Sequence record: NC_042307.1 | Reading direction: 5' to 3' (one strand) | Length of the DNA stretch: 64,000 nt | Source of the DNA: a phage | In this document: positions 630 through 63,246 of the stretch, in pieces | How positions within the stretch are numbered: position 1 is the stretch's first letter | How the letters are laid out: the number at the start of each line of letters is the position of its first letter | Position numbers and translations under genes: made by a program | Notes under the pieces: model-generated | Database searches by the model: none | Told to the model about the DNA's origin: nothing | What the model saw: only the letters and a program-made list of their open reading frames with translations

Positions 630-1109
630 TTAAATTTTATTCCTCCATTTTACTAGGAATTTTAGATTATTTGGACAGTTAGGGTGGGTACCATTACTAG
701 TAGGGACATAAGCCCGGTTATTATTACCCTTTGAGGTAGTTCTAGCAACACGAATATATTTTGGAAGATTGGTTGTTTTACTGTTGGTATTTTTGCGATT
801 TCTAGCATTTTTATAGTCAGGTATTTGTCTTAGATTCTCAGGAGAATTATTAGTGGGATCCTGATCTATATGATCTACCTGCAACTCGGGATCAATACTG
901 CCGTTATGTAGGCAGAAAACAATCCGAGAAACTGCTAGGGTTCCCACCCCAGATACAAAGACCACATAAGACTTCCTACCTTTTCCGTCGTCCCTTAAAG
1001 TGCCTGTATGTTTTCTTTTAGGTAATCTACTCAGTCCACTGGGACTTGATGGGTCAATAAAAAATAAGTCTTTCATTTGTGCATATTCGATAGGTATATA
1101 TCTTGACAT
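630..1109 (-). CDS. HNH homing endonuclease (HNH_3-like)
   Basis: Motif 'VDHIDQDPTNNSPENLR'; ATG at 1109 preceded by AGGAGG; track ORF 630..1163 trimmed to RBS-supported start. Confidence 0.6.
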   Translation of the reverse strand: MSRYIPIEYAQMKDLFFIDPSSPSGLSRLPKRKHTGTLRDDGKGRKSYVVFVSGVGTLAVSRIVFCLHNGSIDPELQVDHIDQDPTNNSPENLRQIPDYKNARNRKNTNSKTTNLPKYIRVARTTSKGNNNRAYVPTSNGTHPNCPNNLKFLVKWRNKI

Positions 1110-1183
1110 AATAAAATTCCTCCTATGAAGTAATATTATAACAAAATTTTCGAAAGTGTGCAAGTGAAATTTTTATATTTGAA

Positions 1184-1212
1184 AATAACCGCCCTCCCTA
1201 TAACCGCCCTAT
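1184..1212. repeat. 29-bp direct repeat copy 1 'AATAACCGCCCTCCCTATAACCGCCCTAT'
   Basis: Identical copy at 1698-1726. Confidence 0.6.
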
Positions 1213-1239
1213 TCGAATCCTGTGGAATTAGCTAGAGTA

Positions 1240-1656
1240 TGTGCAAATCCGACATGTGTTGAGATGTGCGAATCCGATGAAATTTTTATGACTTCGATGA
1301 GAGGGTGTGTGATTGTATGGGTTTGTGGAGAAGATGAGAGAGCGAGAGAAATTTTGGGACTAGAAGGAAGTGGGCGCAGGATTGGTGCGGAGCACCTGAT
1401 TTGCGGGGATTTTGGGGAATAGTTGAGATAATTTGGGGAGATTTGAGATAGGTGCAGAAAAAGTAAAATTTTATTAGCAAAATGGGGCAAAATAGCTTGA
1501 CAAGTGAAAATTCTTGTGGCCCTAAAAACTCAGGCAATCATGGGCCTTCGGCCCGAAATAATGCTGCTATTTTCAAGAGATTATATGTTCCTAAAAACTT
1601 AGGCGTTTGTGCAAATCCGACCATAAATTTCTAGAAACACAATGTGCAAATCCGAC
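1240..1656. repeat. Dispersed 13-mer 'GTGCAAATCCGAC' copies (1240, 1266 variant, 1609, 1644) in ORF-poor region
   Basis: Motif read directly; related 'CAAATTCGAC' copies at 544-627 and one more copy at 3660. Confidence 0.5.
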
Positions 1657-7050: not shown

Positions 7051-7328
7051 TTTTTAATCTCCGTGATTATCTGTGTACGCATTACTTTAGCAGGTAATTT
7101 ATTATTCCCAACTATTGCTTCTATATTATTTAATTTTTCCTTAAGAATATCCGAGCGTCTTTGGGCTATTTCAATATCTTGCTCTTGCTCTAGCAAGCGG
7201 TGGTGTAGTCCATCATTAGTAATAAGCATACTTTCCATGTTTTTTCGTGCGTTTATAATCCCAATAACTCCACCAATCGCTACTAGTGTAGTAAGAACTA
7301 GTAACCCAATAAGAATTTCTGTAATCAT
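7047..7328 (-). CDS. membrane-anchored coiled-coil protein (93 aa)
   Basis: N-terminal TM 'ILIGLLVLTTLVAIGGVIGI' then charged helix. Confidence 0.4.
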   Translation of the reverse strand: MITEILIGLLVLTTLVAIGGVIGIINARKNMESMLITNDGLHHRLLEQEQDIEIAQRRSDILKEKLNNIEAIVGNNKLPAKVMRTQIITEIKK

Positions 7329-7861
7329 TTATTTAATTCCTCTAAAGTAGGTAAGGGTTTTGTATGATCAAAAGTTTCTATAACAGCGTTAGACCCATGT
7401 AGTTCTAAACGTAGTTCATTAGCTCTTTGAACCGCTAATTCTAGATCTAAGAAATCAAAATACCCACCATGTACTAACTTTTTGTATGAATCTACAACCC
7501 TTACTTCCCATTTTTGCTTTTGTTTATGCCAAAAGATTCCCAAATACCCTGATTTGCTCCTTGCTGTTCTATTTCTAGAATTTTCTTGGTTGTTAGACTC
7601 TCTAAGGTTAGCCCACCTATTATCACTCCGTATACGATTTACGTGGTCTATTACTTCGGGAATATAACCTTCCATATAGAGGAAGGCTAGTCGATGTGCT
7701 TTGTAACCTACTTTATCTACTCTTATTTCTATATACCCAGTCTTTCTTAGACAGCCAGCAATACTACCAGCTTTTTGATTACCTATACTTACTAATCTAA
7801 TAAACTCGCCCGTTTCCGGGCGGTATTCCAATAATTCTTTTAATCTTTCTTGTGTTATCAT
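7325..7861 (-). CDS. HNH homing endonuclease (MITQERLKEL family)
   Basis: Motifs 'EVIDHVNRIRSDNRWANLRESNNQEN'; paralog of ORFs at 14934, 31921, 56828. Confidence 0.7.
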   Translation of the reverse strand: MITQERLKELLEYRPETGEFIRLVSIGNQKAGSIAGCLRKTGYIEIRVDKVGYKAHRLAFLYMEGYIPEVIDHVNRIRSDNRWANLRESNNQENSRNRTARSKSGYLGIFWHKQKQKWEVRVVDSYKKLVHGGYFDFLDLELAVQRANELRLELHGSNAVIETFDHTKPLPTLEELNK

Positions 7862-10541: not shown

Positions 10542-10832
10542 TTAATCTTCTGGATTATCATCCAGGAAGTTTTTAATAGCTTCGTGCATAGTTTCCTTAC
10601 GAAGCTGACGTCCAATCAAAATATGATTAGCTTCTATTCGACCATTAGGTAAGCGATCTGCCAGAACTACTACAGGTACTTGACGTACACCAAATTTCTG
10701 CATTAATTCTGTATTATCAGTCTCTTTATGGATTTCCAAATTATAGTCATTGACTACTTTATCAAATACTGGCTCAAACATTTTGCAAGGATTGCAAGTA
10801 GAACCTTTCAATAGATATACTAATTTACTCAT
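10542..10832 (-). CDS. thioredoxin/glutaredoxin-like protein
   Basis: Redox 'CNPC' motif near N-terminus, about 96 aa. Confidence 0.5.
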   Translation of the reverse strand: MSKLVYLLKGSTCNPCKMFEPVFDKVVNDYNLEIHKETDNTELMQKFGVRQVPVVVLADRLPNGRIEANHILIGRQLRKETMHEAIKNFLDDNPED

Positions 10833-11355
10833 TATTTAAATCCTCAATACTTGGAATAACTCCATTAAATACCTCTAAAACAGCACGCTCTCCGTGTAGT
10901 TTTTGTCTTAAAGTATTGGCTGATTTAACTGCCAATTCTAAATCTTTATGTTCAAAGCGCCCGCCGGATATACTTTCTCCATTTGAGTTCACGACGTAGA
11001 CTTGCCACTTACCTCGATTCCATGAAACTCCTAAATAGCCGGATTTACTCCATGCTTTCCTATTTCTTAGATTTTCCTGTTTAGTAGCATTACGAATATT
11101 ACACCACCTATTATCATAGGTTATGCGATTTTCATGGTCCATCTCATGCTCTGGCCATTCTCCAGTCATGTATAGACATGCTAATTGCTGCGCATAATAA
11201 GGGCGTTTATTAACGGTTATTCTAATGTATCCATCTTTAGTGAGTGTTCCTGCTATATCCCCCCTCTTTTTCGGTCCTCTACTTACTTTCCATGTAAAGA
11301 TTCCCGTTTCAGGGTCGTAATTGAACATCTGTTTAAGAGTATCCTGTGTAATCAT
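10825..11355 (-). CDS. HNH homing endonuclease
   Basis: 'HEMDHENRITYDNRWCNIRNATKQEN' motif. Confidence 0.65.
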   Translation of the reverse strand: MITQDTLKQMFNYDPETGIFTWKVSRGPKKRGDIAGTLTKDGYIRITVNKRPYYAQQLACLYMTGEWPEHEMDHENRITYDNRWCNIRNATKQENLRNRKAWSKSGYLGVSWNRGKWQVYVVNSNGESISGGRFEHKDLELAVKSANTLRQKLHGERAVLEVFNGVIPSIEDLNNE

Positions 11356-14184: not shown

Positions 14185-14937
14185 TTACCCCACTAGTGGT
14201 TCTAGCTCTGAGTCACAGAAGTTATACACTTCTAGTGTGAGGTTATAGATACCATCGGGTGTATTAGCTAATTCGTGAGTGATATATTTTGCAGGAATAC
14301 CACTTTCAGATGGATGATCTGATTTAATAGTGAACTTCTGCTCAGCGGGCACTACATTTACTAGTAAAGAATCCATATCTAAATGGTTCGTTTCTCTGAG
14401 TAACTCTCCTTCATTGGGGAATCTCACATCTGTTATTACGGCGACATCTGGGTCGTCTTTAGCGATGGATTGCTCCAGAATTATGAGCCAAATGCGTTCA
14501 TGTACCAGCTGCCTTCCTAGCTCTGTTCCTACGAGCTGTAACATTTTTCTTGGAGAAATAAATAAACTATAAAGTCCGTCTTCTTTATTCTCTGAGATAA
14601 GTTGTTGAGGATTAAGATATTTTTCCTCAAAAATCGGCCAAAGGTACGAGAAGTCTTCAAACTTATCGATACCGTATTTAAACCATACGTCTCTAGCTCG
14701 CTCCAACTGAGATTGTGTGACTGTAAACCATTGGTCAATCTCTTTCCCTCTGCGCTCTCCTAGAAACTCTGGAGTTACACCGAGGATTACGGATGCAAGT
14801 TCATAAACGGGCTTAGCAAAACTGTAACGACGGGATAAACACGTTGGATACGTGTCATTACACCAATCGATAATTAATTTTGCAACGGTATCTTTTCCTG
14901 CACCTGCCCCGCCATGTAAACCTACTAGTACGCTCAT
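14185..14937 (-). CDS. dnk: deoxynucleoside-5'-monophosphate kinase (T5 Dnk-like, 250 aa)
   Basis: P-loop 'GGAGAGKDT'; size matches T5 enzyme. Confidence 0.6.
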   Translation of the reverse strand: MSVLVGLHGGAGAGKDTVAKLIIDWCNDTYPTCLSRRYSFAKPVYELASVILGVTPEFLGERRGKEIDQWFTVTQSQLERARDVWFKYGIDKFEDFSYLWPIFEEKYLNPQQLISENKEDGLYSLFISPRKMLQLVGTELGRQLVHERIWLIILEQSIAKDDPDVAVITDVRFPNEGELLRETNHLDMDSLLVNVVPAEQKFTIKSDHPSESGIPAKYITHELANTPDGIYNLTLEVYNFCDSELEPLVG

Positions 14938-15470
14938 TTATTAAGTTCCTCTAAAGTTGGTAAAGATTTTGTAGAATCAAAAGTTTCTACAACAGCATTT
15001 TCACCATGCAACTGTAAACGAAGTTCATTGGCTCTTTTAACTGCCAACTCTAAATCTAGGTATCTAAAGGAGCCTCCATACATATTAGTACCTCTAAAAT
15101 TAGCAACATTTACTTCCCACTTCTGGTCACGTTTCCTCCAGCTAATTCCTAGATAACCAGATTTACTTCTAGTAGCTTTATTTCTCTGGTTTTCTTGATT
15201 ATTAGACTCTCTAAGATTTACCCAACGATTGTCGCTCCTTACGCGGTTTATGTGATCTACCATCTCAGGAGTATAGCCCTCCATATAAAGGAATGCTAGC
15301 TGATGTGCCAGGTAGGGTTTTCCATCTACCTTTATTTGTATATATCCATCTTTCCTAAGTGTACCTGCGATATTACCAGCTTTTTGATTACCAACAGCCA
15401 CTAACCTAATAAATAATCCAGTATCAGGGTTATATTCAAGTAATTCCTTTAATCTTTCTTGTATTACCAC
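14934..15470 (-). CDS. HNH homing endonuclease (MVIQERLKEL family)
   Basis: Paralog of 7325..7861. Confidence 0.7.
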   Translation of the reverse strand: MVIQERLKELLEYNPDTGLFIRLVAVGNQKAGNIAGTLRKDGYIQIKVDGKPYLAHQLAFLYMEGYTPEMVDHINRVRSDNRWVNLRESNNQENQRNKATRSKSGYLGISWRKRDQKWEVNVANFRGTNMYGGSFRYLDLELAVKRANELRLQLHGENAVVETFDSTKSLPTLEELNK

Positions 15471-15471: not shown

Positions 15472-15825
15472 TTAATCTTTCCTATTGTTAATTGGTGGAT
15501 AATATACTAAACAACGTTTTTCTTGCAAATCTTGGCGGTAGAAGCAAACCATACTTGTCAGTCGTGAGATATATGAATATTCTGCCTCGCGGCATTTTGC
15601 CAACATATTCCAATCTTTATATGGTACGACTACTAGTACGCCATCCTCCCCATTTGTAGCTAATTTCTTTTCAAACTTAAAGTCAAAGCTACAAGGTTGA
15701 AGTCCTTTAGGCCAGTCCACATGAGCTGTTGGTAGTTCATGGGTAGGTTCTGGCTTTATTTCTTGTGCACAGCCTGTGATTGTGATTGCGGCTGCGAGCA
15801 GTATTCCAAGTTTTATTTTGTGCAT
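15472..15825 (-). CDS. lipoprotein (possible o-spanin or exclusion lipoprotein)
   Basis: Signal peptide with lipobox 'ITGC'. Confidence 0.5.
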   Translation of the reverse strand: MHKIKLGILLAAAITITGCAQEIKPEPTHELPTAHVDWPKGLQPCSFDFKFEKKLATNGEDGVLVVVPYKDWNMLAKCREAEYSYISRLTSMVCFYRQDLQEKRCLVYYPPINNRKD

Positions 15826-16511
15826 CTACGCACCTCATAATGTGTTTCTATGTATTGTTCCACTTCTACTGGAGAAACATTGAAAAACTCTGTACTTCCA
15901 CTAAACCCCCCATAACTGCATCTTTTATTTTTATAGACACTATGTAGGTCAGCTTCGATCTTAGCTGTTTCTTCCTTAGAACCCTTGCCACAAATATAGT
16001 AAGATGATACTCTCAGATCTTTAAAACCACTACAAGACTTAACTTCTAGAAGTCTTTTCTGCACACTCTTACTTATACCTATTTTTATGCCTTTATCTGA
16101 AACAAATATGTATAAAAATCCTTGTGTATCCCAAGCTGTTTTGGCACAATTTGGGCACCCACTATGGTGTAAAACGTGGTTAGTGGTTGTCTCCCACTGA
16201 TGGGAACATGTATTACATAAAAACTTTAGCTTAGAAGTAGAATTAGTATATTCACTTAGTAATACGATTTTTCTAGGACTGAGGAGTGAGTTAATCCTGT
16301 CTTTGGTTAACTTTTCATTGCCTGCACATTTTGGGCATCCTCTACCTTTATTTCTGACATTTGTAGGGGCTGTTAACCATGTATTAGAGCATATAAGACA
16401 CTTAAATTGTGTCTTTGTCTTATTATGTTCATATTCCCCTACTAATCTTACTGTCCTACCTTGAGCTTCTAAATCTTTATTAAAGATTTCTTTATTTATT
16501 TTTACGCTCAT
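15813..16511 (-). CDS. T5orf172/GIY-YIG-like endonuclease with tandem zinc-ribbon repeats
   Basis: Repeated 'C..C..W....GCP.C' units then 'GFLYIFVSDKGIKIG' core. Confidence 0.55.
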   Translation of the reverse strand: MSVKINKEIFNKDLEAQGRTVRLVGEYEHNKTKTQFKCLICSNTWLTAPTNVRNKGRGCPKCAGNEKLTKDRINSLLSPRKIVLLSEYTNSTSKLKFLCNTCSHQWETTTNHVLHHSGCPNCAKTAWDTQGFLYIFVSDKGIKIGISKSVQKRLLEVKSCSGFKDLRVSSYYICGKGSKEETAKIEADLHSVYKNKRCSYGGFSGSTEFFNVSPVEVEQYIETHYEVRRCTK

Positions 16512-16917
16512 CCCTACAGTACTCCAAGCTACCAGAAAGACATGCTAATCTTTCCTCGAATTCCTTACTCTGCTTTTTAGCAATTAATGTAACCAATCCA
16601 GGCTTTGCAGCTATAATATCTTGACGACTAAGTGCTTTATCAAGCTGATTAATTTTCTTGTCTAGATCTGCTTGCGAAACATTATTCATTGTGAAATACT
16701 GATTCATTCGAGTCTCACGAAGTTCACTCTCAGCCCTCACATTATTAAGGGAAGTTTCTAGAGCAGAGATCTTTTTAGTAGCTACTGCAAGATCACCTGC
16801 TAGAGTCTCAACCTTATTAACTAAGTGATAAGCACCGAATCCGATGCCTATCGCCAAACCAGCTCCCAGGATATACATCTTGTTATTCCAAACTAAGTCT
16901 ACAAACCATTTCCGCAT
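16492..16917 (-). CDS. N-terminal TM + coiled-coil protein (possible i-spanin)
   Basis: 'ILGAGLAIGIGFGAY' TM then heptad-rich region. Confidence 0.4.
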   Translation of the reverse strand: MRKWFVDLVWNNKMYILGAGLAIGIGFGAYHLVNKVETLAGDLAVATKKISALETSLNNVRAESELRETRMNQYFTMNNVSQADLDKKINQLDKALSRQDIIAAKPGLVTLIAKKQSKEFEERLACLSGSLEYCRDERKNK

Positions 16918-17414
16918 TAGCCTGTACTCGCAAACTCACCGTGGAGTTCTTTGAGTTTGGTATCCCGCCATTTTATAGCCTCTTCCAAACTCTTAAGTGT
17001 TTTCGAAACTTGCTTACCATGTTTGGTAATTCTTACTTGGTAAGTCCCATTTGTTTTTCTATGGATATTTTTAACGCCTAAATGGTTATCGCTTCTTACT
17101 TTTTGGTTACAAGCATTATCAGATCTTGTAGCAGGCCTTAGATTCTCAAATCTATCATTAGTTGAGTCTTTGTCCTTGTGATCAACTATTTCAGGCCATT
17201 CTCCAGTATGCCATGCATAGATTAATCTATGTGCCCCTATAGCTATGGAACCATTATATAGTTCAACTACTCTATGCCCTGTACTTTGTCTAGATCCTGC
17301 TACTGTTCCGGCGAATATCTTATTAAAATGTTCGTCCCCTTCCCTGGGTTTCCAGATAAGATTACCATCTTCTTGGTAATCGAAGATTCTTCTTAGCTCT
17401 TCCTTACTGATCAT
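16917..17414 (-). CDS. HNH homing endonuclease
   Basis: 'EIVDHKDKDSTNDRFENLR' motif. Confidence 0.65.
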   Translation of the reverse strand: MISKEELRRIFDYQEDGNLIWKPREGDEHFNKIFAGTVAGSRQSTGHRVVELYNGSIAIGAHRLIYAWHTGEWPEIVDHKDKDSTNDRFENLRPATRSDNACNQKVRSDNHLGVKNIHRKTNGTYQVRITKHGKQVSKTLKSLEEAIKWRDTKLKELHGEFASTG

Positions 17415-19005: not shown

Positions 19006-19331
19006 TTCAGATCCTTTTCATTAATTAAAATATTTGTAAATAATGGGGTATTCCCCAAGCACATGGTAGGGCCAAATGTATTCATGGCTACCCATAACTG
19101 CATGGTTATCATACCGTCTTTAATCGCCGGATCTTTATACTCCTCGATACGTTTCTTGGCAAAAGCAACTATGTCTGGATTATTTTTATTTTCCTGAATA
19201 TAGTCATGCCAAAACTGGGTATTCTCACTACGTAGGAATGTTAAAATATCCTTAGTTGCTGGAATCTGCACTGTGCTGTTGATGTTTAGTCTTTTCACGT
19301 TCTTCTCTCTGTTATTCTTTAGGAAACCCAT
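19002..19331 (-). CDS. hypothetical protein (109 aa)
   Basis: ORF. Confidence 0.4.
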   Translation of the reverse strand: MGFLKNNREKNVKRLNINSTVQIPATKDILTFLRSENTQFWHDYIQENKNNPDIVAFAKKRIEEYKDPAIKDGMITMQLWVAMNTFGPTMCLGNTPLFTNILINEKDLK

Positions 19332-19821
19332 TAAACTCTTCGATGACTGCTAGAGTTCCGTGCAATTCTAATCGTAATCCATTAGCTTTGTATACTGCAG
19401 ATTCTAAGTCTTCATAATCGAATAGACCACCGTAAACTCTAATACCTTCGTTATTATTAGTATAAACTCTCCATTTCTGGAGATGAGTATCCCAAGATAC
19501 TCCTAAGTATCCCGAATTGCTAGTAGCAGTCCTATTTCTATTATTTTCCTGCCTAGAACTATCTCTGAGATTACTCCACCTATTATCATCCCTAATTCTA
19601 TTGATATGATCAACAAATTCAGGAATATACCCTTCCATAAACAAGAAGGCTAATCTATGCGCTAGTTCCCTGTGTCCATCTCCAACTCTAATCTGAATAT
19701 ACCCATAGTTATTAGGCTTATTATTTATAGGTTTTATTCTACCACTTTTTAGACGTCTAGAAAATAATCCTGTTTCTGGATCATATATCAGCAGTTCTTT
19801 TAACCTTTCTTGTGTAATCAT
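19312..19821 (-). CDS. HNH homing endonuclease
   Basis: 'EFVDHINRIRDDNRWSNLRDSSRQEN'. Confidence 0.7.
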   Translation of the reverse strand: MITQERLKELLIYDPETGLFSRRLKSGRIKPINNKPNNYGYIQIRVGDGHRELAHRLAFLFMEGYIPEFVDHINRIRDDNRWSNLRDSSRQENNRNRTATSNSGYLGVSWDTHLQKWRVYTNNNEGIRVYGGLFDYEDLESAVYKANGLRLELHGTLAVIEEFNGFPKE

Positions 19822-25608: not shown

Positions 25609-26091
25609 CTAACCAAAGTTAGTAAATTCTTTATGTAAGGATTCTCTTAATATCTTAGAGGCCTCGAAAGCCTCTTCCGCAGTTTTAAACCCTCTTTTAC
25701 TGTAATTTTTTCCTTCATGTCTTACTTGGTATCTCCAGGAAGAGCCTTCCCAACTTACTCCTTTGTACCCAGAAGTATTATTGCATTGTTGGTTTCTATT
25801 CGCATTATTTTGCGATCTAGAGGCGTCCCTTAGATTATTTTTCCTATTATTTCTAGGATTAGTATCCTTATGATCTACTTCTTCAGGCCTATATCCATAG
25901 TACATAATAAATAATAAGACATGCAGTTGATAGGTGTCGCCCTGAAATCCCACATCTGGATGTGATTTCTTATTATTGGCACAACACTCTTTCAAACCTT
26001 TCTTTGTTTTCCTATATAGTATCCCATTATCAGGATCAGCTACAAAATATTTTTCAAGTATTTCTTTAGTAGGGTATTCTTTCCTTTTCAT
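25609..26091 (-). CDS. HNH homing endonuclease (F-Tfl-like, adjacent to tRNA cluster)
   Basis: 'EEVDHKDTNPRNNRKNNLR'. Confidence 0.6.
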   Translation of the reverse strand: MKRKEYPTKEILEKYFVADPDNGILYRKTKKGLKECCANNKKSHPDVGFQGDTYQLHVLLFIMYYGYRPEEVDHKDTNPRNNRKNNLRDASRSQNNANRNQQCNNTSGYKGVSWEGSSWRYQVRHEGKNYSKRGFKTAEEAFEASKILRESLHKEFTNFG

Positions 26092-27278: not shown

Positions 27279-28100
27279 TTAAAATAGATCATATTCTAAT
27301 CTATTGGGATTTTCTCGGTATCCATAAGACGTAAGAGTACCCCTCATATACTCTGCGTCAACAGGATTAGATGTTACTAGAACCACTTTTAGTGGTCTTT
27401 GACCTAAAAATAGTATATGATCTAATAAGTCTTTTCCTTGTACCTCTGGATCTCCTAAATCTGAGTCCATAAATAAATAGGATCCTGTGAAACTAAATAT
27501 ATCTGATAGCTCCAGCGCACCTATAACTGTACGACAAATAATGGACATTTCAGGTAGATCTCTAACATCGTCTATTAGAATATTGGTCTGCTTCCCAATT
27601 TCTGCATTACATAAACCATTTACTAGTTTTTCTCTTTCCCCTTTAGCTTGTTCGAAAGTGGTGAAGCCAGGAGATACGAAAAACTTTCCACCTAATGTAA
27701 TGCTATACACAAAACCCTCGGGGAGGAGTTCTACACCTACGGTTTTATTAGTATTAATCCTATTTAACTTAAAATTTGTCTCTCTTAGATTAATAATTCT
27801 GTTATCCCACGGTATAGTATTTATATGGTCGATCATATAAGGCGGCTCTTCACCATAATGGAGCAACCACGCTATTCGGTGTCCATAAATAATTGTGGGT
27901 TTATTATCTAAGAGCAAACTAACTCTGATGTACCCATCAGAGTTCTTACTACATATTTCTCTCCCAGCATATAGGGTGTGCCAAGTTTTATTCTTGTATT
28001 TATTAGGCCTATAAAATAATTTACCGGTATAAGGATTATACTCTATAATTTCTCGAATATAATCTATATATGGTAGTATTTGTTTTTGTAATTTACCCAT
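27279..28100 (-). CDS. HNH-like N-terminal domain fused to unknown C-terminal domain
   Basis: 'GHRIAWLLHYGEEPPYMIDHINTIPWDNRIINLRE' then about 120 aa with 'ILIDDVRD...LFMDSDLG...VVLVTSNP'. Confidence 0.5.
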   Translation of the reverse strand: MGKLQKQILPYIDYIREIIEYNPYTGKLFYRPNKYKNKTWHTLYAGREICSKNSDGYIRVSLLLDNKPTIIYGHRIAWLLHYGEEPPYMIDHINTIPWDNRIINLRETNFKLNRINTNKTVGVELLPEGFVYSITLGGKFFVSPGFTTFEQAKGEREKLVNGLCNAEIGKQTNILIDDVRDLPEMSIICRTVIGALELSDIFSFTGSYLFMDSDLGDPEVQGKDLLDHILFLGQRPLKVVLVTSNPVDAEYMRGTLTSYGYRENPNRLEYDLF

Positions 28101-31447: not shown

Positions 31448-31924
31448 TCACATCTCAGCCATTTCAGCTTCAGTAATAACTGTGTTACACAATGCATCTA
31501 CAGCTTCATTACCACTAATACCAGAATGTCCTTTAACCTTAATAAAGGTAGGGTTAGTATTATGAAAGTTGATATACTGCTGTGTTAATTTAAATGCTTC
31601 CTGCCAAAGTTCTAGATTAAGAGGAACTTCACCATCTGCTTTCTTCCAGCCTTTCCTTTGCCAAGAAAACATCCAACTTTCCATACCATTTTTGCAATAA
31701 GCAGAATCAGTATAGATAACAATTGGCCTATTATCTTTTTTAACTGACCAACGTAGAGCCTCTACAATAGCCGTGAGTTCCATCTCATTATTTGTAGTTT
31801 TAGGACTATATCCAGATTTAGAACCTAAACGATCGTCGTTATCATCATAGACAATAAAACCCCAAGCACCGGGACCTGGGTTAGACTTACAAGCACCATC
31901 TGTGTAAATGTGGAATGTACTCAT
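31448..31924 (-). CDS. rnh: ribonuclease H (RNase HI-like)
   Basis: 'IYTDGAC..NPGPGAWG', 'YTDS'. Confidence 0.7.
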   Translation of the reverse strand: MSTFHIYTDGACKSNPGPGAWGFIVYDDNDDRLGSKSGYSPKTTNNEMELTAIVEALRWSVKKDNRPIVIYTDSAYCKNGMESWMFSWQRKGWKKADGEVPLNLELWQEAFKLTQQYINFHNTNPTFIKVKGHSGISGNEAVDALCNTVITEAEMAEM

Positions 31925-32466
31925 TTATTAAGATCCTCTAAGGTAGGATAATAGTTATTATAAAATGTTTCTTCTACAGCATCTTTACCATGTAACTCAT
32001 GTCGCAAGGTATTTGCTTTTAATACGGCGTTCTCTAAATCTAGATATTCGAATATTCCACCATAAATATTCTTACCCTCACTATTTATTATCTGTACTTG
32101 CCACTTTTGTAGCTGCTTATTCCAATGTACTCCTAAGTACCCTGATTTGCTAGAGGCAGTGCAGTTTCTATTATTAATTTGACTAGTAGATTCTCTTAAA
32201 TTTTTCCATCTATTATCTGACCGTATACGATTTATATGATCTACTAAGTCAGGAATACTTCCTGTCATATACAGAAATGCCAGTCTATGGGCTAGATAAT
32301 CTACCTTATCTATTTTTATAGTTATATAACCATCTTTTCTTAAATAGCCAGCAACTGCTCCGGCTTTACCTCCCCTACCTCTACTTATTTTATTAGTAAA
32401 TATTCCAGTATCGGGATCATAATTTAGAAGTTCTTTTAATCTCTCTAGTGTCGGTTGTTTACTCAT
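31921..32466 (-). CDS. HNH homing endonuclease
   Basis: 'DLVDHINRIRSDNRWKNLR'. Confidence 0.7.
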   Translation of the reverse strand: MSKQPTLERLKELLNYDPDTGIFTNKISRGRGGKAGAVAGYLRKDGYITIKIDKVDYLAHRLAFLYMTGSIPDLVDHINRIRSDNRWKNLRESTSQINNRNCTASSKSGYLGVHWNKQLQKWQVQIINSEGKNIYGGIFEYLDLENAVLKANTLRHELHGKDAVEETFYNNYYPTLEDLNK

Positions 32467-35594: not shown

Positions 35595-36017
35595 TTAAGT
35601 ATATTTTACACCTTTACGGGCTATCTGTACCTGGTAAGATCCGCTAGCTTTTGGATGAATATTTTTAATACCTAACTTATTATCTTTATGCGCCCCGACA
35701 TTCTTTCCGTTACTGAATCTATCAGAAGCTACTAGGTTAATAGCTCTATTATCATGTCGTATTCTATTGTCGTGGTCTACTTCAGGTGGCAGATACCCAT
35801 GAATTTTAGCAAAGATTACCCTATGTGCTAAGTAGGGGTATCCTTTAATATTTAATACTATATATCCTGTAGATTTATCTAAGGAGCCTGCTGGTTTTCC
35901 GGCATATTTGGTATTAAATGTTTTATTATCTCTAGGTCTATGAGTTAATATTCCAGTATATGGATCATAATCAAATAATTTAGCTACCTCTAGATGATCT
36001 TCTAATGTTTTTGACAT
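35595..36017 (-). CDS. HNH homing endonuclease inserted between nrdA and nrdB
   Basis: 'PEVDHDNRIRHDNRAINL'; ATG 36017. Confidence 0.6.
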   Translation of the reverse strand: MSKTLEDHLEVAKLFDYDPYTGILTHRPRDNKTFNTKYAGKPAGSLDKSTGYIVLNIKGYPYLAHRVIFAKIHGYLPPEVDHDNRIRHDNRAINLVASDRFSNGKNVGAHKDNKLGIKNIHPKASGSYQVQIARKGVKYT

Positions 36018-38752: not shown

Positions 38753-38753
38753 A

Positions 38754-39800: not shown

Positions 39801-40670
39801 GTGGAATGCCCGAAAAAATTAACTCAAGAAGAAGTAGATAAATGCCTAGCCGAGCGTGGTTTTACTATGGTGGATAAGCCATATCAAAATTCTAGGTATA
39901 GGCATACGTATCAGTGTGAATACGGTCACCAATGGACAGCTAAATTTGACGCTATTAGGAATGGAAAGACCAATTGTCCTACTTGCTCTATTAGTAGCCG
40001 TAAACTAGATATTGATAAAATTAATACTATATTACAGGACAGAGGTATTACATTGTTGAACGGCTATAAAAATAGTGCCGATATAAATACTAAATTTAGG
40101 TGTGTTTGTGGTCATGAGTGGGCTACTACACTTAATAGTATAATTAATAGAGGTAGTGGCTGCCCATCTTGTGCTGCTAATAAACAGAAACTTAGTGTTA
40201 ATACTATAAATGATCGTCTTGCTGCCAGAAATATCAGAATAGTGGGTGAGTATAGTAATGCGAATACTAAGACCGCCTTTCTTTGTGGTGCAGGGCATAG
40301 GTGGGAAGCTACTCCAGGGTCTGTATTAAGGGGGAACGGTTGTCCTTACTGTAGTTATAGAGATTTAGAAAGTACTAGGATATATGTTATGTATAGCCCC
40401 TCACATGGGGTTAAAATAGGTAGGTCTAACAATCCAGAGCGTAGACTTCTACATATTAGATCTAGTAGCCACCTTATTGATTTGGAAATAATTAAAGTAT
40501 TTGAAATTGGGGAATATAGTAGTGCAGTTCGAATAGAAAAATTAGCCCATAACTACTTTAAAGAGCAGAATTGCCAGTACAAAGATTTTGACGGCGCTAC
40601 GGAATTCTTCAATATTGAACCAAAAGTAGCTATAAAGTTTATCGAGGAAATAATCAATGACAGAGAATGA
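39801..40670 (+). CDS. T5orf172/GIY-YIG-like endonuclease with four zinc-ribbon repeats (GTG start)
   Basis: Repeated 'C.C.H.W....GCP.C'; 'RIYVMYSPSHGVKIGRS'. Confidence 0.55.
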   Translation: MECPKKLTQEEVDKCLAERGFTMVDKPYQNSRYRHTYQCEYGHQWTAKFDAIRNGKTNCPTCSISSRKLDIDKINTILQDRGITLLNGYKNSADINTKFRCVCGHEWATTLNSIINRGSGCPSCAANKQKLSVNTINDRLAARNIRIVGEYSNANTKTAFLCGAGHRWEATPGSVLRGNGCPYCSYRDLESTRIYVMYSPSHGVKIGRSNNPERRLLHIRSSSHLIDLEIIKVFEIGEYSSAVRIEKLAHNYFKEQNCQYKDFDGATEFFNIEPKVAIKFIEEIINDRE

Positions 40671-42525: not shown

Positions 42526-42554
42526 TTGCTTTCAGCTAAAAATTTATGTATAAT
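42526..42554 (+). promoter_or_regulatory. Sigma70-like promoter (-35 TTGCTT, -10 TATAAT)
   Basis: 17-bp spacer; 'ataaatttgagagg' leader. Confidence 0.5.
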
Positions 42555-42582
42555 AGATTTATAAATTTGAGAGGAAAAGACT

Positions 42583-42960
42583 ATGAAAGTAAAACCCTAT
42601 ATCATTGTTTCAACCTGTGGGAGCTACCAATTAGCGGTAGAAACCATAGAAGAAGCTATTTTTGCTGCTACTGGTGATTATTCTCATCTTGAGGGGGTTG
42701 GTTATCCTACCATTATTGGTAATTGGGTGGAAACTAATTTAGATGTTAATCCATATAATTCTGATTATGAAGATGAAGAAGAGGTACAGGATAACATTGA
42801 ATTTGTATATAAAAGAATCTTAAGTATCTATGAGCATCAGGGCAGCCCTATTGAGTATGTGGATATTACTGAAGTAGCTAAGAAGCGCCTTAAATACGTT
42901 TATGCCAATTTTTCAAATGAAGACCTGGAAACAGTTGCAGTGGAGTTTAATAATGACTAA
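42583..42960 (+). CDS. hypothetical acidic protein (125 aa)
   Basis: ORF with GAGAGG RBS. Confidence 0.5.
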   Translation: MKVKPYIIVSTCGSYQLAVETIEEAIFAATGDYSHLEGVGYPTIIGNWVETNLDVNPYNSDYEDEEEVQDNIEFVYKRILSIYEHQGSPIEYVDITEVAKKRLKYVYANFSNEDLETVAVEFNND

Positions 42961-43159
42961 GAATGTAAAACACCTTAAATATCGCTTAATTTACAACGGA
43001 CGTATGGAAACAGAAGACCTAGCTCAATTAGCTATTAATTCTAATGAGGTCACGGTACGTGCGTTAGCTATTGAAAAGTTGCGGGCTTCTTATGAAAGTC
43101 GTATTATGGAACTAGAGGAGAAACTTTATGGCATTCTCGAAGCCGATGCTACCCGATAA
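42953..43159 (+). CDS. hypothetical protein (68 aa)
   Basis: ATG 42953 overlapping upstream stop. Confidence 0.35.
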   Translation: MTKNVKHLKYRLIYNGRMETEDLAQLAINSNEVTVRALAIEKLRASYESRIMELEEKLYGILEADATR

Positions 43160-43349
43160 TGGCTTAAATGCTGCGCTGGAAAATGCATTGATGCAGCAGT
43201 GGGAGGCTGGATATAAGGATGGGGTTGAATCTTGTGCAAAAATAATGGATATTATGGCTAATTCTGTAGTTGGGAAAGCCCATCCAGAAGTATCTGATAT
43301 ACTCCATAACCTTAGTAAAAACTTCAGAGAGCAGGTGAAAAATGCGTAG
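43128..43349 (+). CDS. hypothetical protein (73 aa)
   Basis: ORF. Confidence 0.35.
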   Translation: MAFSKPMLPDNGLNAALENALMQQWEAGYKDGVESCAKIMDIMANSVVGKAHPEVSDILHNLSKNFREQVKNA

Positions 43350-45804: not shown

Positions 45805-46257
45805 ATGTCATTCACACAGCAAGAACTTTTAGATAACTTCCGGTATGAAGAGGGTAAGTTATTTAGAACTACAGGAAGAAATGCAGGGAAAGAATGTTGT
45901 GTTTCTACGGGTAACGGATATTATCGTATATCTCTAGGGAATAGGACTATGCTTCGGCATAGAGCAATATTTTTAATGCATCATGGATACTTACCTGATT
46001 TAGTAGACCATGTGAATACTATAAAAGGTGATGATCGTATTGAAAATCTTAGAGAGCAGACAGTATCCGGTAATCTAAGAAATATCAAATATAAGAAAGG
46101 AATGCATGTTTACCCTTCTGGTAGTAAGAACTGGCAAGTGGTATTTACTATTAACCGTAAACGTATAGTTAAAGGAACATATGACAACTATGAGGTTGCA
46201 TGTTCTATGGCCAAGATGTTTAGAGGTCAATTATACGGTAGGGAATCAATCCAGTAA
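45805..46257 (+). CDS. HNH homing endonuclease
   Basis: 'HRAIFLMHHGYLPDLVDHVNTIKGDDRIENLR'; ATG 45805 with GGAGGTGAGG RBS. Confidence 0.6.
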   Translation: MSFTQQELLDNFRYEEGKLFRTTGRNAGKECCVSTGNGYYRISLGNRTMLRHRAIFLMHHGYLPDLVDHVNTIKGDDRIENLREQTVSGNLRNIKYKKGMHVYPSGSKNWQVVFTINRKRIVKGTYDNYEVACSMAKMFRGQLYGRESIQ

Positions 46258-49792: not shown

Positions 49793-50251
49793 ATGATAAC
49801 ACAGGAAGAGGTTAGAGAGGCTTTTGAGTATGATCCTGAAACAGGCCATCTTAAATGGAAGAAAACAAGACAGAAGAGTCTAGTAGGTAAGTTTGCCGGT
49901 GGTAAACATAAAGGGTATATAAGAATAGGGTTTAAGCGTAGGCACTGGGGAGAACATCAGCTGGTATTCTTATATCATAAGGGGTACATACCAGAAGAGA
50001 TAGACCACAAAAACAGGATTAAAGATTGCAACTTTATAGAGAATTTAGAAGACTCCAATAGATCTAAGCAAATGCACAATATTAATGTACGTAAAGACAA
50101 TAAGTTGGGTGAGCCTAATATCTACATGAGGGGCGATAAATATTGTGTGCTAATGCAGAAAGGATCTATTCGTAAGTACCAGCAGTGCAATACTATAGAA
50201 GAGGCTAAAAAAGTTAGGGCTAATTTTAAGTCCGAACTCTATCCAAATTAA
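49793..50251 (+). CDS. HNH homing endonuclease
   Basis: 'EEIDHKNRIKDCNFIENL'. Confidence 0.55.
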   Translation: MITQEEVREAFEYDPETGHLKWKKTRQKSLVGKFAGGKHKGYIRIGFKRRHWGEHQLVFLYHKGYIPEEIDHKNRIKDCNFIENLEDSNRSKQMHNINVRKDNKLGEPNIYMRGDKYCVLMQKGSIRKYQQCNTIEEAKKVRANFKSELYPN

Positions 50252-55358: not shown

Positions 55359-56831
55359 ATGACCTTGTTTAACGTGCAAGCTGTAGTGTTGAAGATGCTT
55401 CTAGCTTCCGAACAGAAGCAAATAGCATTGGAAACATTCTCAAAACTGCATAAAGATCATTTTAATGACGCTTTCTCCTCAATTTACCAAGCCGTCCAGA
55501 ATTATTATAAAAAATATAACACAATGCCGTCCATTGACGCACTGATGCTTGAGGCTAATAGGAACGCCCGCCTTTCTCAAGCTCTAGTCGTTTTAGCTAA
55601 CACTCAAATTCCAGAAGTTAGCATGGAACAGGCACTTGAAGTCCTAGAGGCCGAGTATACGCAGGATTTATTCCTGAAGCTTCTAGAAACAGACGTGCTT
55701 CAAGATTTAACAATGCTGGATCAGGGAGAAATTCTTAACCGAGTTGCCTCCCTTCACTTAAAATTAGAAGAGAAAGTAACGAATACTGGAAAAGTATTCA
55801 ACGCAGATAACATGCGTATTTTCCAGAGAGAAGAAGATACCAAACTGAACTTAATCGCTCTTGGTATTTGTAATGAGTTCGACGCTCAAATTGGTTTAGC
55901 TCGCACAGAAACGTTACTGCTTGGTGGTTGGCGTGGTACTGGTAAATCCATTATCTGTTCAAACATACAGGTTCAGCAATATTTGAATGGAGATATTGCT
56001 CCATACTTCTCAATTGAGATGAAAGAACATGAAGTATTTAGACGTAATCTAGCCATGTTAGCTGGTGTATCAGCACTAGCAATGCGTAATAATACTCTAG
56101 AAGGTGCAGCTCTGTTGAGATTAGCCAGAACTAGAGCTAGAATGTTTAACGGTGGTGAAGAGCTTTTCGATAACTTCGTTAAACAATACACAATGGCTAA
56201 GATGAGTGATTTCTACGATATGGAAAGTAAGCTAATAGAAGGATATGAGCTACATACTCCTATGATTATTGTTTATGATCCTGAGCTGTCTATTACAACA
56301 GTTGACGTAGAATTAAATAAATTAGTTGCTAGATATGGGGATAAAGTTACAGTAGCTTTACTTGACTATATTAACCAAACCCGACTTCCAGATTCTAAAA
56401 CCATTGATATGTATGACTGGAAAGAACAGATGGTTGTTAGCTCGTCTTTCAAATCCCTCTGCCAGAAACATAACGTGGCTGGTGTAGCTCCTTACCAGAT
56501 TGATCAAGATGGTAGAACACGTATGTCAAAAGGGATTCTTGATTCCGCAGACATGGCTGCTAATCTTAATGCTGCAAAAGCTGATAATGGTCAAGGTGCT
56601 ATTATGTTTGACTTCGTTAAGACCCGTTCTTCTGATAGCGTGAAGTTTATGCCTAAAATGAACTGGGAAACCCTGCGGATGGATAACACTACCAACCTAG
56701 CAATGGAAGATATATCTCAAATGGAAGCTGAGTTCGTTATCCCTATTGAGAAGGATAAGCCAGCTCAATCTAAACGTGCTAAGAAAGACAAAGCTGAAAA
56801 TTCAACAGGTGAACAGGCCAGCGATATATGA
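55359..56831 (+). CDS. DnaB-like replicative helicase
   Basis: Walker A 'GGWRGTGKS'; ATG 55359 with AAGGAGA RBS. Confidence 0.6.
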   Translation: MTLFNVQAVVLKMLLASEQKQIALETFSKLHKDHFNDAFSSIYQAVQNYYKKYNTMPSIDALMLEANRNARLSQALVVLANTQIPEVSMEQALEVLEAEYTQDLFLKLLETDVLQDLTMLDQGEILNRVASLHLKLEEKVTNTGKVFNADNMRIFQREEDTKLNLIALGICNEFDAQIGLARTETLLLGGWRGTGKSIICSNIQVQQYLNGDIAPYFSIEMKEHEVFRRNLAMLAGVSALAMRNNTLEGAALLRLARTRARMFNGGEELFDNFVKQYTMAKMSDFYDMESKLIEGYELHTPMIIVYDPELSITTVDVELNKLVARYGDKVTVALLDYINQTRLPDSKTIDMYDWKEQMVVSSSFKSLCQKHNVAGVAPYQIDQDGRTRMSKGILDSADMAANLNAAKADNGQGAIMFDFVKTRSSDSVKFMPKMNWETLRMDNTTNLAMEDISQMEAEFVIPIEKDKPAQSKRAKKDKAENSTGEQASDI

Positions 56832-57361
56832 TAACACAGGAACGACTAAAAGAACTGTTTGACTACTCCCCAGAGACTGGGGAGTTTATTAGAAAAGTAT
56901 CTAGAGGCAACCAGAAAGCCGGGAGTATAGTAACTAGAAAGGATTCAAACGGTTATATAATTATCGGTATAGATGGTAGGGATTATAAAGCCCATCGTAT
57001 GGCCTTCCTATTTATGGAAAACACGTTACCTGAAAAAGTAGACCATATAAACCGTATACGAAGTGATAATCGATGGTGTAATCTAAGAGACGCCACAGCC
57101 CAGGAAAATAGTAGAAATAAAACCGCATGTAGTAAGTCTGGATATTTGGGAGTTGCTTGGGATATAGAAAAACAAAGATGGAGAGTTCAAGTAAGAGACT
57201 CTAATAGCACTCTTAAAAATGGTGGCAGATTTAAGTATGAAGAGCTAGAGCTAGCTGTAAATTCAGCAAATATATTAAGGACTAAGTTACATGGAGAACG
57301 TGCTGTTATAGAATTTTTTGATACATCTAATTATCCTTCACTGGAGGAGTTAAATTCATGA
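56828..57361 (+). CDS. HNH homing endonuclease (MITQERLKEL family)
   Basis: 'EKVDHINRIRSDNRWCNLRDATAQEN'. Confidence 0.7.
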   Translation: MITQERLKELFDYSPETGEFIRKVSRGNQKAGSIVTRKDSNGYIIIGIDGRDYKAHRMAFLFMENTLPEKVDHINRIRSDNRWCNLRDATAQENSRNKTACSKSGYLGVAWDIEKQRWRVQVRDSNSTLKNGGRFKYEELELAVNSANILRTKLHGERAVIEFFDTSNYPSLEELNS

Positions 57362-60878: not shown

Positions 60879-61368
60879 TTTCAAATTGCCCGTCTATGCG
60901 TTACGGGCGTTTGTATCAATTGAGCAGGAAGGTGATTATTCCATAATTACAACAAGATATAATAAATATGTGTTAGATAACAGGGAGTTGCCTGGCACAT
61001 TCTCTCAACGTAGGTTAGCCTTATTTGAGAAGCGGAAAGAATTACCGTACAAGCTCTATCCTATTAGAGGTAGAATATCAATGTTGTCTCAATTAGTTGG
61101 GTCAAAGCGTAGCCAATTTATAGATTCTGATGGAAATCTTATTAACTGGAAGAAAACTACGTTCTATGATGTTGTCACCGCTAAAGTTTTGCATTCAGCT
61201 AGAATTTATAACGGAAAATACCAATGCTATGTAGCTAAAGTTCCATATCCATTTGTATTATCCTATGTTCCAGCTTATATAAGCTATATTCTGGTAAATA
61301 ATAGCCCTGTTATTTATCAAGTCCATCAAGAGGAGCCTGAAATTCCTAGACTTAGAATAAAATTATGA
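60871..61368 (+). CDS. hypothetical protein (165 aa)
   Basis: ORF. Confidence 0.45.
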   Translation: MLNFKLPVYALRAFVSIEQEGDYSIITTRYNKYVLDNRELPGTFSQRRLALFEKRKELPYKLYPIRGRISMLSQLVGSKRSQFIDSDGNLINWKKTTFYDVVTAKVLHSARIYNGKYQCYVAKVPYPFVLSYVPAYISYILVNNSPVIYQVHQEEPEIPRLRIKL

Positions 61369-62711
61369 AGGTTGTTATATCTAATAAAGCCTATTTCAAG
61401 CCCGATGATGAACTTTGGGATTATTGTAGTAAGCAAACCACTTATCACATAGAGACAATGACTAGTAAATACCCTATTATGTATAAGAATAGTGGTGTTG
61501 TTGCCAAAGAGATTAAGTGGATTCCTATTACGCGTCTGGACTTATTAGATGCTAAAGGAATAAAATACGAATTAGTCGATAAACGCACATTAGCTCCGGT
61601 AGATATACCAGAACCGTCGTTTAAACTGCGTGAAGAAGATCAGCTTCCAATATACGAAGAATGCGATGATACCTGTATTATTAATGGTAAGCCTGGGTTT
61701 GGTAAAACTATCCTAGCACTTGCACTTGCGTATAAATTTGGCCAGAAAACTTTGGTAATCTGTACGAATACATCCATTCGTGAAATGTGGGCGGCAGAAG
61801 TTCGTAAATGGTTTGGGTTTGAACCAGGCATCATAGGTTCTGGAAAGTACAATATTGATCCACCCATTGTGGTCAGTAATATTCAAACAGTGAATAAACA
61901 TGCGAATAATCTTTCTAAAGTATTCGGTACTGTTATAGTTGATGAAGTTCACCATTGTGTGGCTACAACTTTCACTAACTTCCTAGAAATATCATGTGCT
62001 CGCTATAAAATTGGACTATCCGGTACACTAAAACGAAAAGATGGTCTACAAGTTATGTTCAAAGATTTCTTTGGATATAAGATATTTAGCCCACCGGTTA
62101 ATAATACTGTTGCACCTACAATCCATAGGTACTCCGTGCCTGTTGAGCTATCAGGAAACCAAAACGTACCGTGGGCATTACGTGCTAACGATGTGTATAA
62201 CCATCCTGAATACCGAGAGACTATTATAAACCTAGCACATCTATATGTGAATATGGGGCATAAAGTACTCATTCTAAGTGATAGAACAGAGTTAATCCAA
62301 ACAGTACTAGAAGCTCTTGCACAGCGTGGTGTTACAACCTATGAGATTATAGGTGCAACCCACTTAGATGACAGATTAAAAATTCAGGAAGATATAGCAA
62401 AAGGTGGGCCGTGTGTGCTTGCAGCAGCTCAAAGCATCTTCTCCGAAGGTATTTCACTTAACGAGCTGTCTTGTTTAATAATGGGGAGCCTCATTAATAA
62501 TGAATCTCTCATTGAACAGCTTGCAGGCCGTGTTCAACGTATTGTCGAGGGTAAACTCGACCCAATCGTTGTAGATCTAATTATGAAAGGTGGCACTGGG
62601 TTAAGGCAGGCTTCTGGACGTATGGCCGTGTATCGCAATAACGCGTGGAAAGTAATCACAATGACCCCTGAGAAAGCTGTGAGATTAGCACAAGAAATAT
62701 TTAAAACTTGA
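61365..62711 (+). CDS. SF2 DNA/RNA helicase (DEAH-type)
   Basis: Walker A 'GKPGFGKT', 'VDEVHH'. Confidence 0.65.
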   Translation: MKVVISNKAYFKPDDELWDYCSKQTTYHIETMTSKYPIMYKNSGVVAKEIKWIPITRLDLLDAKGIKYELVDKRTLAPVDIPEPSFKLREEDQLPIYEECDDTCIINGKPGFGKTILALALAYKFGQKTLVICTNTSIREMWAAEVRKWFGFEPGIIGSGKYNIDPPIVVSNIQTVNKHANNLSKVFGTVIVDEVHHCVATTFTNFLEISCARYKIGLSGTLKRKDGLQVMFKDFFGYKIFSPPVNNTVAPTIHRYSVPVELSGNQNVPWALRANDVYNHPEYRETIINLAHLYVNMGHKVLILSDRTELIQTVLEALAQRGVTTYEIIGATHLDDRLKIQEDIAKGGPCVLAAAQSIFSEGISLNELSCLIMGSLINNESLIEQLAGRVQRIVEGKLDPIVVDLIMKGGTGLRQASGRMAVYRNNAWKVITMTPEKAVRLAQEIFKT

Positions 62712-62712
62712 C

Positions 62713-63246
62713 ATGATAACTCAACAAAGATTAAAAGAATTACTAATATATGATCCAGATTCTGGCCACTTTATTAACAAGGTGTCCAGGGGCAGAGGAG
62801 GTAAAATTGGGGCTATTGCTGGAAGTCCTGATAAAGATGGATATATAATCATAGGTATAGATAGGAAATCTTATAAAGCCCATCGCTTAGCCTTCTTGTA
62901 CATGGAAGGCTATATGCCTACTGAAGTAGACCACGATAATAGAATACCTTATGATAATAAATGGAGTAACTTAAAAGATTCTTCTCATTCGGAAAATATG
63001 AAAAACCGTAACCCTTATAGTAAATCTGGTTATAAAGGAGTTACGTGGAATAAGGTTAAGAAGAAATGGCAAGTACAAGTGTGTAGGTCAGATGGTTCTA
63101 CAGTTTATGGTGGGTTATTCCCTTATGAAGAATTAGAGTTAGCTATAAATAAAGCTAATGAACTTAGAGTACAGCATCTAGGTATGGATTCCAGGCAAGA
63201 ACTATTTAAAGGATATATTTGCCGACGTGAGGACTTAGATAAGTAA
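62713..63246 (+). CDS. HNH homing endonuclease
   Basis: 'TEVDHDNRIPYDNKWSNLKDSSHSEN'. Confidence 0.7.
   Translation: MITQQRLKELLIYDPDSGHFINKVSRGRGGKIGAIAGSPDKDGYIIIGIDRKSYKAHRLAFLYMEGYMPTEVDHDNRIPYDNKWSNLKDSSHSENMKNRNPYSKSGYKGVTWNKVKKKWQVQVCRSDGSTVYGGLFPYEELELAINKANELRVQHLGMDSRQELFKGYICRREDLDK

Follow-up and report, generated by a model that had tools for sequence, protein, structure and literature searches.

Sixteen probable free-standing homing endonuclease genes in the early and replication region of a T5-like phage

A 64,000-nucleotide stretch of phage DNA (sequence record NC_042307.1; the window, in what follows) carries 14 genes for HNH endonucleases of the HNH_3 type (H1 to H14) and two genes for endonucleases of the T5orf172 type (G1 and G2). 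The data indicate, with a probability of about 90%, that these 16 genes are free-standing homing endonuclease genes (HEGs), i.e., mobile genes of a selfish, non-essential kind that have built up in the early and replication region of a T5-like phage. A sequence-only reading of the window had pointed to homing-type endonucleases, and the sporadic presence of the free-standing genes at precise sites between conserved genes bears this out. When synteny with T5-like genomes was compared, insertion polymorphism was found at every slot, and no copy was conserved in all relatives.

The window was compared by megablast with a collection of 50,697 phage records, which placed it in the early and replication region of a T5-like phage (Demerecviridae, Tequintavirus), with 90-97% matches to hundreds of Salmonella and Escherichia T5-like phages. 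By local BLAST, positions 215-64000 are collinear with positions 9437-76233 of T5 (NC_005859), a span that starts at the left terminal repeat's inner end and stops shortly after the D10 helicase; genes lie on the minus strand until about 39.5 kb and on the plus strand thereafter. The comparison set consisted of the matching regions of 27 further T5-like genomes from IMG/VR, together with T5_ev219. Slots were scored by flank-anchored BLAST, with 17-30 informative genomes per slot, and a gene at a slot was called the same gene at a nucleotide (nt) identity of at least 85%. Insertion junctions relative to T5 were read by BLAST-anchored mapping. For genes without a close copy in the 28-genome set, frequencies were obtained from the full collection as the number of records covering at least 80% of a gene-plus-flanks query over all matching records.

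All 14 HNH_3 open reading frames (ORFs) that the sequence-only reading had listed by their lower coordinates exist, and each scored above the Pfam HNH_3 gathering threshold; the two T5orf172-type genes that it had counted were located at 15813-16511 (minus strand) and 39801-40670 (plus strand), both above threshold. In three cases the true start is internal to the mechanically called ORF (630-1109, 35595-36017 and 45805-46257). A hidden Markov model (HMM) built from the 14 recovered exactly these 14, and no 15th HNH gene, in the six-frame translation of the window. The 16 genes are as follows.

630..1109, minus strand: H1, HNH_3 (Pfam HNH_3, E=1e-12)
7325..7861, minus strand: H2, HNH-AP2, 'MITQERLKELL' subfamily (HNH_3, E=9.5e-15)
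10825..11355, minus strand: H3, HNH-AP2, between the thioredoxin (T5.037) and T5.038 homologs
14934..15470, minus strand: H4, HNH-AP2, between the T5.044 homolog and dnk
15813..16511, minus strand: G1, T5orf172/GIY-YIG-type with CapR / treble-clef zinc fingers
16917..17414, minus strand: H5, HNH_3, ortholog of T5 hegF (F-TflVI)
19312..19821, minus strand: H6, HNH-AP2, in the slot of T5 hegE (F-TflV)
25609..26091, minus strand: H7, HNH_3, in the region homologous to T5 'rnaX'
27279..28100, minus strand: H8, 273-amino-acid (aa) ORF, HNH_3 plus T5.084-like cREC_REC
31921..32466, minus strand: H9, HNH-AP2, between rnh and thy
35595..36017, minus strand: H10, truncated HNH_3, in the nrdA/nrdB slot
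39801..40670, plus strand: G2, T5orf172/GIY-YIG-type, three zinc-finger repeats
45805..46257, plus strand: H11, HNH_3, between the T5.107 homolog and the replication-origin-binding gene
49793..50251, plus strand: H12, HNH_3, downstream of the T5.110 homolog
56828..57361, plus strand: H13, HNH-AP2, ortholog of T5 hegJ, between the replicative helicase (D6) and primase genes
62713..63246, plus strand: H14, HNH-AP2, at the 3' end of the D10 helicase gene

The 16 genes add up to about 8.9 kb, which is 14% of the window. The same HMM found 1-12 HNH_3 copies (median 2) in the equivalent region of the 27 T5-like genomes, with 12 in SHSML-45, 10 in NR01 and 5-6 in T5, so that the window, with 14, exceeds every genome compared and the density was rightly called very high. 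Its HNH load is the extreme of a known distribution, a matter of degree.

Fifteen of the 16 slots were empty in most informative genomes (28-30 T5-like genomes compared), and the same gene recurred at the same slot in 0-7 genomes; at some slots a different HEG or other DNA was found in some genomes. Neither T5orf172-type gene is found in T5 at its slot, nor are ten of the 14 HNH genes, and the window in turn lacks T5 hegI as well as hegA, hegC and hegD of the T5 tRNA region. Of the indels above 300 bp that separate the window from T5, almost all are HEGs. SHSML-45 shares H1, G1, H8, G2, H11, H13 and H14 with the window at 97-100%, and the full-collection frequencies span about 1% to 15% of matching records.

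Among the genes on the minus strand, H1 was absent from T5 and its site was empty in 23 of 25 genomes (97% identity in SHSML-45, 85% in NR01). The H2 slot held the same gene in three genomes, a homolog in seven (72-75% nt) and no HEG in 15; the H2 protein was 100% identical at the same slot of T5_ev219 and reached at least 95% in only about six phages. The H3 site was empty in 21 of 28 genomes, with the same gene (95%) only in SP01 and a different insert in six, and that of H4 was empty in 27 of 28, the gene being carried by 6 of 449 matching phage records. G1 was absent from T5, with an empty site in 26 of 28 genomes and copies of 98-100% identity in SHSML-45 and NR01. H5 shared 99% nt identity with T5 hegF at the same slot and was present in six and missing from 22 of 28 genomes. 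The H6 slot is the one with few empty sites (5 of 27 informative genomes), a different, unrelated 359-bp segment being present in 21 of the 27; H6 itself was 72% identical (nt) to T5 hegE, about 96% to its counterparts in IrisVonRoten, vB_Sen_I1 and vB_Sen_SG_WM_RUS_R2, and 93.6% to a Gostya9 gene annotated 'HNH nicking homing endonuclease F-TflVIII', and occurred in 12 of 409 records. H7 was absent from all 17 informative genomes and was found in 61 of 422 matching records of the full collection. H9 had counterparts of 93-94% nt identity in KS_S14, DaisyDussoix and BF23 (annotated hegE) and occurred in 35 of 226 records, and H10 in 47 of 438.

The plus-strand genes gave the same picture. G2 was absent from T5, with 19 of 25 sites empty and the same gene in three genomes; H11, also absent from T5, had 24 of 28 sites empty and the same gene (98-99%) in three. 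The H12 site was empty in 25 of 30 genomes, and the gene was 96-99% identical where present; T5's own hegI, located one gene upstream, is absent from the window. H13 was 92% identical (nt) to T5 hegJ (P-TflX) and 100% to the SHSML-45 gene, being present in seven genomes, replaced by a homolog in two and missing from 21 of 30. The H14 site was empty in 27 of 28 genomes, and the gene was 99% identical in SHSML-45.

The inserted cassettes have the size of an ORF and exact borders, with overlapping starts and stops and short duplications of these overlaps. Fifteen of the 16 are separate ORFs between neighbouring genes or overlapping their ends, H8 being the exception, and none is embedded in an intron or intein. 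Overlaps of 1-20 bp with neighbouring genes are frequent, and the genes are embedded in the host operons, each in the direction of its operon. The description of the sites as intergenic slots held for the free-standing genes between conserved genes and needs qualifying for H8, which is fused, for H14, which replaces the end of D10, and for H2, which occupies the place of the small T5 gene T5.031. Among the insertions are H3, a clean one with a 7-bp duplication of the start/stop overlap; H4, a 537-bp insertion of exactly ORF length that reaches from the stop codon of the upstream gene to the start codon of dnk; and G1, at whose borders the original start/stop overlap is duplicated imperfectly over 15 bp. 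At the H7 slot, 474 bp are specific to the window versus 23 bp in T5. H13 overlaps both neighbours by 4 bp. H14 entered at one T5 position (75475/75476), inside the last D10 codons, as an insertion of 554 bp; it gives D10 a new C-terminus (QEIFKT*), and the old 3' end remains downstream as a non-coding relic.

The H9 insertion comprises 953 window-specific bp versus 67 bp in T5 and also holds an acidic ORF of 127 aa (32459-32842, minus strand), which had no Pfam match and is possibly HEG cargo. In T5_ev219 this ORF is likewise found with the HNH gene at the H9 slot, where the annotations of BF23, DaisyDussoix and KS_S14 also show an additional ORF next to the HNH gene. H10 has 94% nt identity to a 163-aa gene of phC17, with a TAA in place of the Lys141 codon and the loss of the last 22 residues, and appears from this comparison to be a decaying copy; in T5 the nrdA/nrdB slot is occupied by an unrelated gene, hegH. 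H1 lies in a non-coding region matching the left terminal repeat / injection-stop region of T5 (T5 9848/9908). In T5, the counterpart of the region 630-1163 is part of the left terminal repeat and of the injection-stop signal, and H1 would be present twice per virion genome if the repeat boundary were the same as in T5.

G2 lies immediately upstream of nrdD and overlaps it. The nrdD allele beside it (window 39700-43341) is only 67-73% identical (nt) to T5, versus about 95% elsewhere. The position of G2 at the edge of a strongly diverged nrdD fits a published pattern in which exchanged modules are bordered by nuclease genes, described as 'nuclease genes at boundaries of genetic exchange' (PMC10448857).

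Comparison of the genes with their flanks also speaks to mobility. H12 was 99% identical in a genome with flanks of 83-87% identity, and H1 was 97% identical versus 82-89% in its flanks. At all 13 comparable slots, the flanks of HEG-carrying genomes were closer to the window than those of empty-site genomes (e.g., 97% versus 82% for G2 and 96% versus 87% for H2). This linkage fits co-conversion of the flanks, and overall relatedness contributes to it. In the mechanism that we propose, a cell would be co-infected by this phage and a related phage without a given HEG, and the nuclease would nick or cut the HEG-less allele near the empty site. Recombinational repair off the HEG-carrying genome would then copy the HEG together with some flanking DNA. 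HEGs would in this way spread slot by slot in the T5-like population, and a genome with many mixed infections would gather many of them. Cleavage specificity, the choice between a nick and a double-strand cut, and super-Mendelian inheritance are features that we infer for these enzymes.

The proteins themselves belong to nuclease families with homing members. In an alignment of the 14 HNH proteins, D72, H73, N85 and N97 are invariant, and N94, which corresponds to the metal ligand N96 of I-HmuI, is present in 13, with Gln in H12; the H12 gene is nonetheless conserved at 96-99% in two other phages. The best solved relative of the 14-protein profile was I-HmuI (1U3E, E=3.7e-9), with weak AP2/ERF matches for the C-terminal part. 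An AlphaFold model of H2, the single member modelled, had a pLDDT of 91.3 and matched I-HmuI (1U3E) at a probability of 1.00 and the AP2/ERF structures 7ET5, 1GCC, 5WX9 and 7WQ5 at probabilities of 0.82-0.98 (E-values 0.005-0.5); the matched AP2 domains are those of TEM1, AtERF1, AtERF96 and WRI1. By sequence, AP2 remained below the Pfam cut-off, with 17-20 bits versus 33.3 in three of ten C-terminal halves tested, and two other C-terminal halves gave weak Arm-DNA-binding matches. The predicted architecture is therefore a His-Me-finger (HNH_3) nuclease resembling I-HmuI, with a small DNA-binding domain of the AP2 type C-terminal to it, and HNH plus AP2 is a recognised homing endonuclease family (PMC5714182, PMC10448857). 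The C-terminal third of H1 is unlike the AP2-like tail of the other copies.

Pfam placed four families above cut-off in both T5orf172-type proteins: CapR (two stretches), DUF4379 (two), MUG113 (E=1.5e-10) and T5orf172 (E=2.5e-8) in G1, and DUF4379 (three stretches), CapR (two), MUG113 (E=3e-11) and T5orf172 (E=5.5e-11) in G2. In G1 and G2, two or three CapR/DUF4379 zinc fingers in tandem thus precede a T5orf172/MUG113 domain with a conserved 'TEFF' glutamate, which is a nuclease domain of the GIY-YIG superfamily. A zinc-finger plus T5orf172 architecture has been described for ICP1 HEGs and is abundant in T5-like phages (PMC10448857).

The closest known systems are the heg genes of T5 itself, together with the corresponding genes of other Tequintavirus genomes. 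Besides H5, H6 and H13 with the T5 counterparts given above, H10 sits in the slot of hegH (P-TflVIII), and the two sets share protein family, operon orientation and start/stop overlaps; they differ in number, with 14 in the window versus 5-6 in T5, ten window-occupied slots being empty in T5. I-HmuI of Bacillus phage SPO1 resembles the window proteins in that Asp74-His75, Asn87 and Asn96 align with their invariant or near-invariant columns, but it is only about 27% identical over 85 aligned columns, is encoded in a group I intron whereas the window genes are free-standing, and has NUMOD/helix-turn-helix modules instead of a single predicted AP2-type domain. The 'IPA-HNH' HEGs of ICP1-like phages (Magnani 2004, Barth 2023, PMC10448857) share an HNH domain at the N-terminus and, as predicted for the window proteins, an AP2-like domain at the C-terminus and are likewise free-standing, variably present and located beside replication or nucleotide-metabolism genes; a 2023 survey described T5-like phages as T5orf172-rich and named other lineages as IPA-HNH-rich (PMC10448857). 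T5orf172/CapR HEGs of the ICP1 gp174 type resemble G1 and G2 in their zinc fingers, T5orf172 domain and variable presence, G2 lying beside a ribonucleotide reductase (RNR) gene. P-TflXVII of T5_ev219, in contrast, consists of the nuclease domain only (118 aa, 34-36% identical to G1 and G2); it sits at a different site, which is empty in the window, and as a query it matched only G1 and G2. The free-standing mobE, seg and mob HEGs of T4 have the same lifestyle, with co-converted flanking markers, and mobE occupies the nrdA-nrdB intergenic slot in T-even phages, as H10 does here. The T4 mob (Pfam HNH) and seg (GIY-YIG) enzymes belong to other nuclease subfamilies and another phage lineage, with a sequence relation only at the superfamily level.

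Several observations weigh against reading all 16 genes as purely selfish homing genes. The flank linkage is confounded by relatedness, as SHSML-45, which shares 7 of the 16 genes, is also the closest genome over much of the right half of the window, and homing itself is presumed from comparative genomics. The AP2 assignment, sub-threshold by sequence, leans mainly on the structure model. H12 has Gln at the presumed metal-ligand position, H10 is truncated and the C-terminus of H1 is aberrant, and therefore not all 14 HNH enzymes need be active. Finally, H8 is a stable in-frame fusion, 96-100% identical in many phages, which is not obviously expected of a purely selfish gene.

H8 also lends itself to the suggestion, compatible with homing, that some copies have been co-opted, be it for excluding competing T5-like phages in mixed infection, for amplifying or exchanging neighbouring genes, or, in the H8 fusion, for a role with the cREC_REC protein. 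Pfam placed the HNH_3 domain of H8 at residues 73-107 and cREC_REC at 173-257, and residues 173-271 align at 51% with residues 4-102 of the 105-aa T5.084. The cREC_REC part is thus a complete T5.084-like cyclic-phosphate-processing receiver protein fused in frame, and the intact 273-aa fusion recurs at 96-100% identity in about 28 records of phages, while 36 of 542 records cover 80% or more of it. HEG-driven marker exclusion and amplification of anti-defence loci have been documented in T-even phages (PMC2330249, PMC13096335), and G2 marks the boundary of a divergent nrdD allele in the manner of PMC10448857. On balance we consider co-option unlikely, because a sporadic distribution, with one copy truncated and none conserved, is in keeping with selfish elements that are non-essential, and because the fusion could simply be the route of that HEG to translation. 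Its strongest form, in which H8 is a domesticated HEG acting with the T5.084-like protein and, more broadly, the HEG load of the lineage aids exclusion of or gene conversion against competitors, is suggested because the fusion is intact and conserved in those records; we regard it as rather improbable. H8 was also considered as an intein, in view of the label 'intein-containing' in two BASEL records, and rejected on its junction residues: the junction (...GKQTN/ILIDDV) has Ile at +1 and no Cys, Ser or Thr, the inserted part lacks a terminal His-Asn, and the ORF starts MGKLQ..., with no host-protein sequence before the HNH part.

Selfish HEGs could have reached 14 HNH copies by duplication and transposition inside this genome, and the sequence-only reading had described the copies as recent paralogs with a shared N-terminus and core. 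The motifs 'MITQERLKELL..PETG' and 'DH.NRIR.DNRW.NLR' are real in a seven-member subfamily (ORFs at 7325, 10825, 14934, 19312, 31921, 56828 and 62713; mutual aa identity 49-71%), which is what speaks for recent duplication, and the ORF at 49793 also has the N-terminal motif; members outside the subfamily share 23-47% aa identity with any other copy. The highest pairwise identity was 71% aa, and in-genome relatives shared about 66-75% nt, whereas the same slot in other phages holds counterparts of each copy with 91-100% nt identity. It follows that the subfamily is old, and the copies appear, from these identities, to be distinct slot-specific lineages that were acquired from other phages and are shared across the phage population, and not recent within-genome duplications, an origin to which we assign very little weight.

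It had further been proposed that some of the HNH enzymes are the nickases that make the strand-specific nicks of T5-type virion DNA. I-HmuI, the nearest solved relative, is a strand-specific nicking homing endonuclease. Orthologs of the window genes are labelled 'HNH nicking homing endonuclease' in GenBank records, and two minus-strand sites, 531-538 and 23847-23854, match the T5 nick consensus RGCGCRGG (R/GCGCRGG) exactly and are homologous to the major T5 nicks 9748 and 39746. A literature search for the T5 nicking enzyme found no paper naming it and identified no gene; it returned only the late-region mapping of sciA and sciB, two T5 loci implicated in nicking (PMC3517423). The proposal nevertheless fares poorly: the window is early region, none of the 14 genes is carried by most relatives, and ten of them do not occur in T5, where the nicks had been defined. 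The nicks appear late in infection, before packaging, whereas the genes sit in early operons, and the nick motif count in the window, four, was reached by 12 of 100 shuffles and is not above chance. We judge it most improbable that these genes make the virion nicks; its DNA probably does have T5-type nicks, with a source other than these genes. By analogy with I-HmuI, the enzymes may well nick in their own homing reaction, which is a separate matter. H1 starts 92 bp from the nick consensus at 531-538, a proximity that was not taken as evidence.

That the high count is an assembly artefact, a mixed-population consensus stitching together HEG-occupied alleles, has in its favour a mosaic window whose best HEG matches are spread over T5_ev219, SHSML-45, SP3, S124, phC17 and IrisVonRoten, a coverage ceiling of about 93% for any third of the window in any phage record (best 89-93%, none covering it fully), and a nrdB frameshift and the H10 nonsense codon within 200 bp of each other, but it is scarcely credible, as mosaicism is normal for T5-like genomes, counts of 12 and 10 occur in the same region of two isolate genomes, and all junctions are clean with neighbouring genes intact except nrdB. 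Relative to phC17 and T5, nrdB (window 34313-35459, minus strand) has a 1-bp insertion near 35402, about 200 bp from the H10 nonsense codon, which puts the first approximately 19 codons out of frame with the remaining 360; either the insertion stems from a sequencing error, or the small subunit of the aerobic RNR is truly inactivated.

Accumulation of selfish HEGs in T5-like phages is a phenomenon already published. The whole T5 genome has nine HNH nucleases of all types (bioRxiv 10.64898/2026.04.02.716235), the BF23 genome paper names HEGs such as the F-Tfl HNH enzymes as the main source of difference among T5-like genomes (PMC10644984), and similar remarks on T5-like homing endonucleases have been made elsewhere (PMC3326045, PMC12639943). 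Each of the 16 genes is already in public phage genomes at no less than 91% nt identity. The value of the present analysis is mainly one of annotation and housekeeping, and it opens no new question: the HEG share of the region explains nearly every indel difference between this phage and T5, and the 16 natural pairs of occupied and empty sites are a ready set for studying homing, target specificity and nicking versus cutting by HNH-AP2 and T5orf172 enzymes.

Outside the HEG slots, the window has six tRNA genes (window 21712-24954) versus about 24 in T5. A block of about 8 kb of the T5 tRNA region (T5 29184-37098), with hegD, hegC and hegA, is missing at the 22826/22913 junction, and T5 37942-39712 (T5.077-079) is likewise missing from the window.

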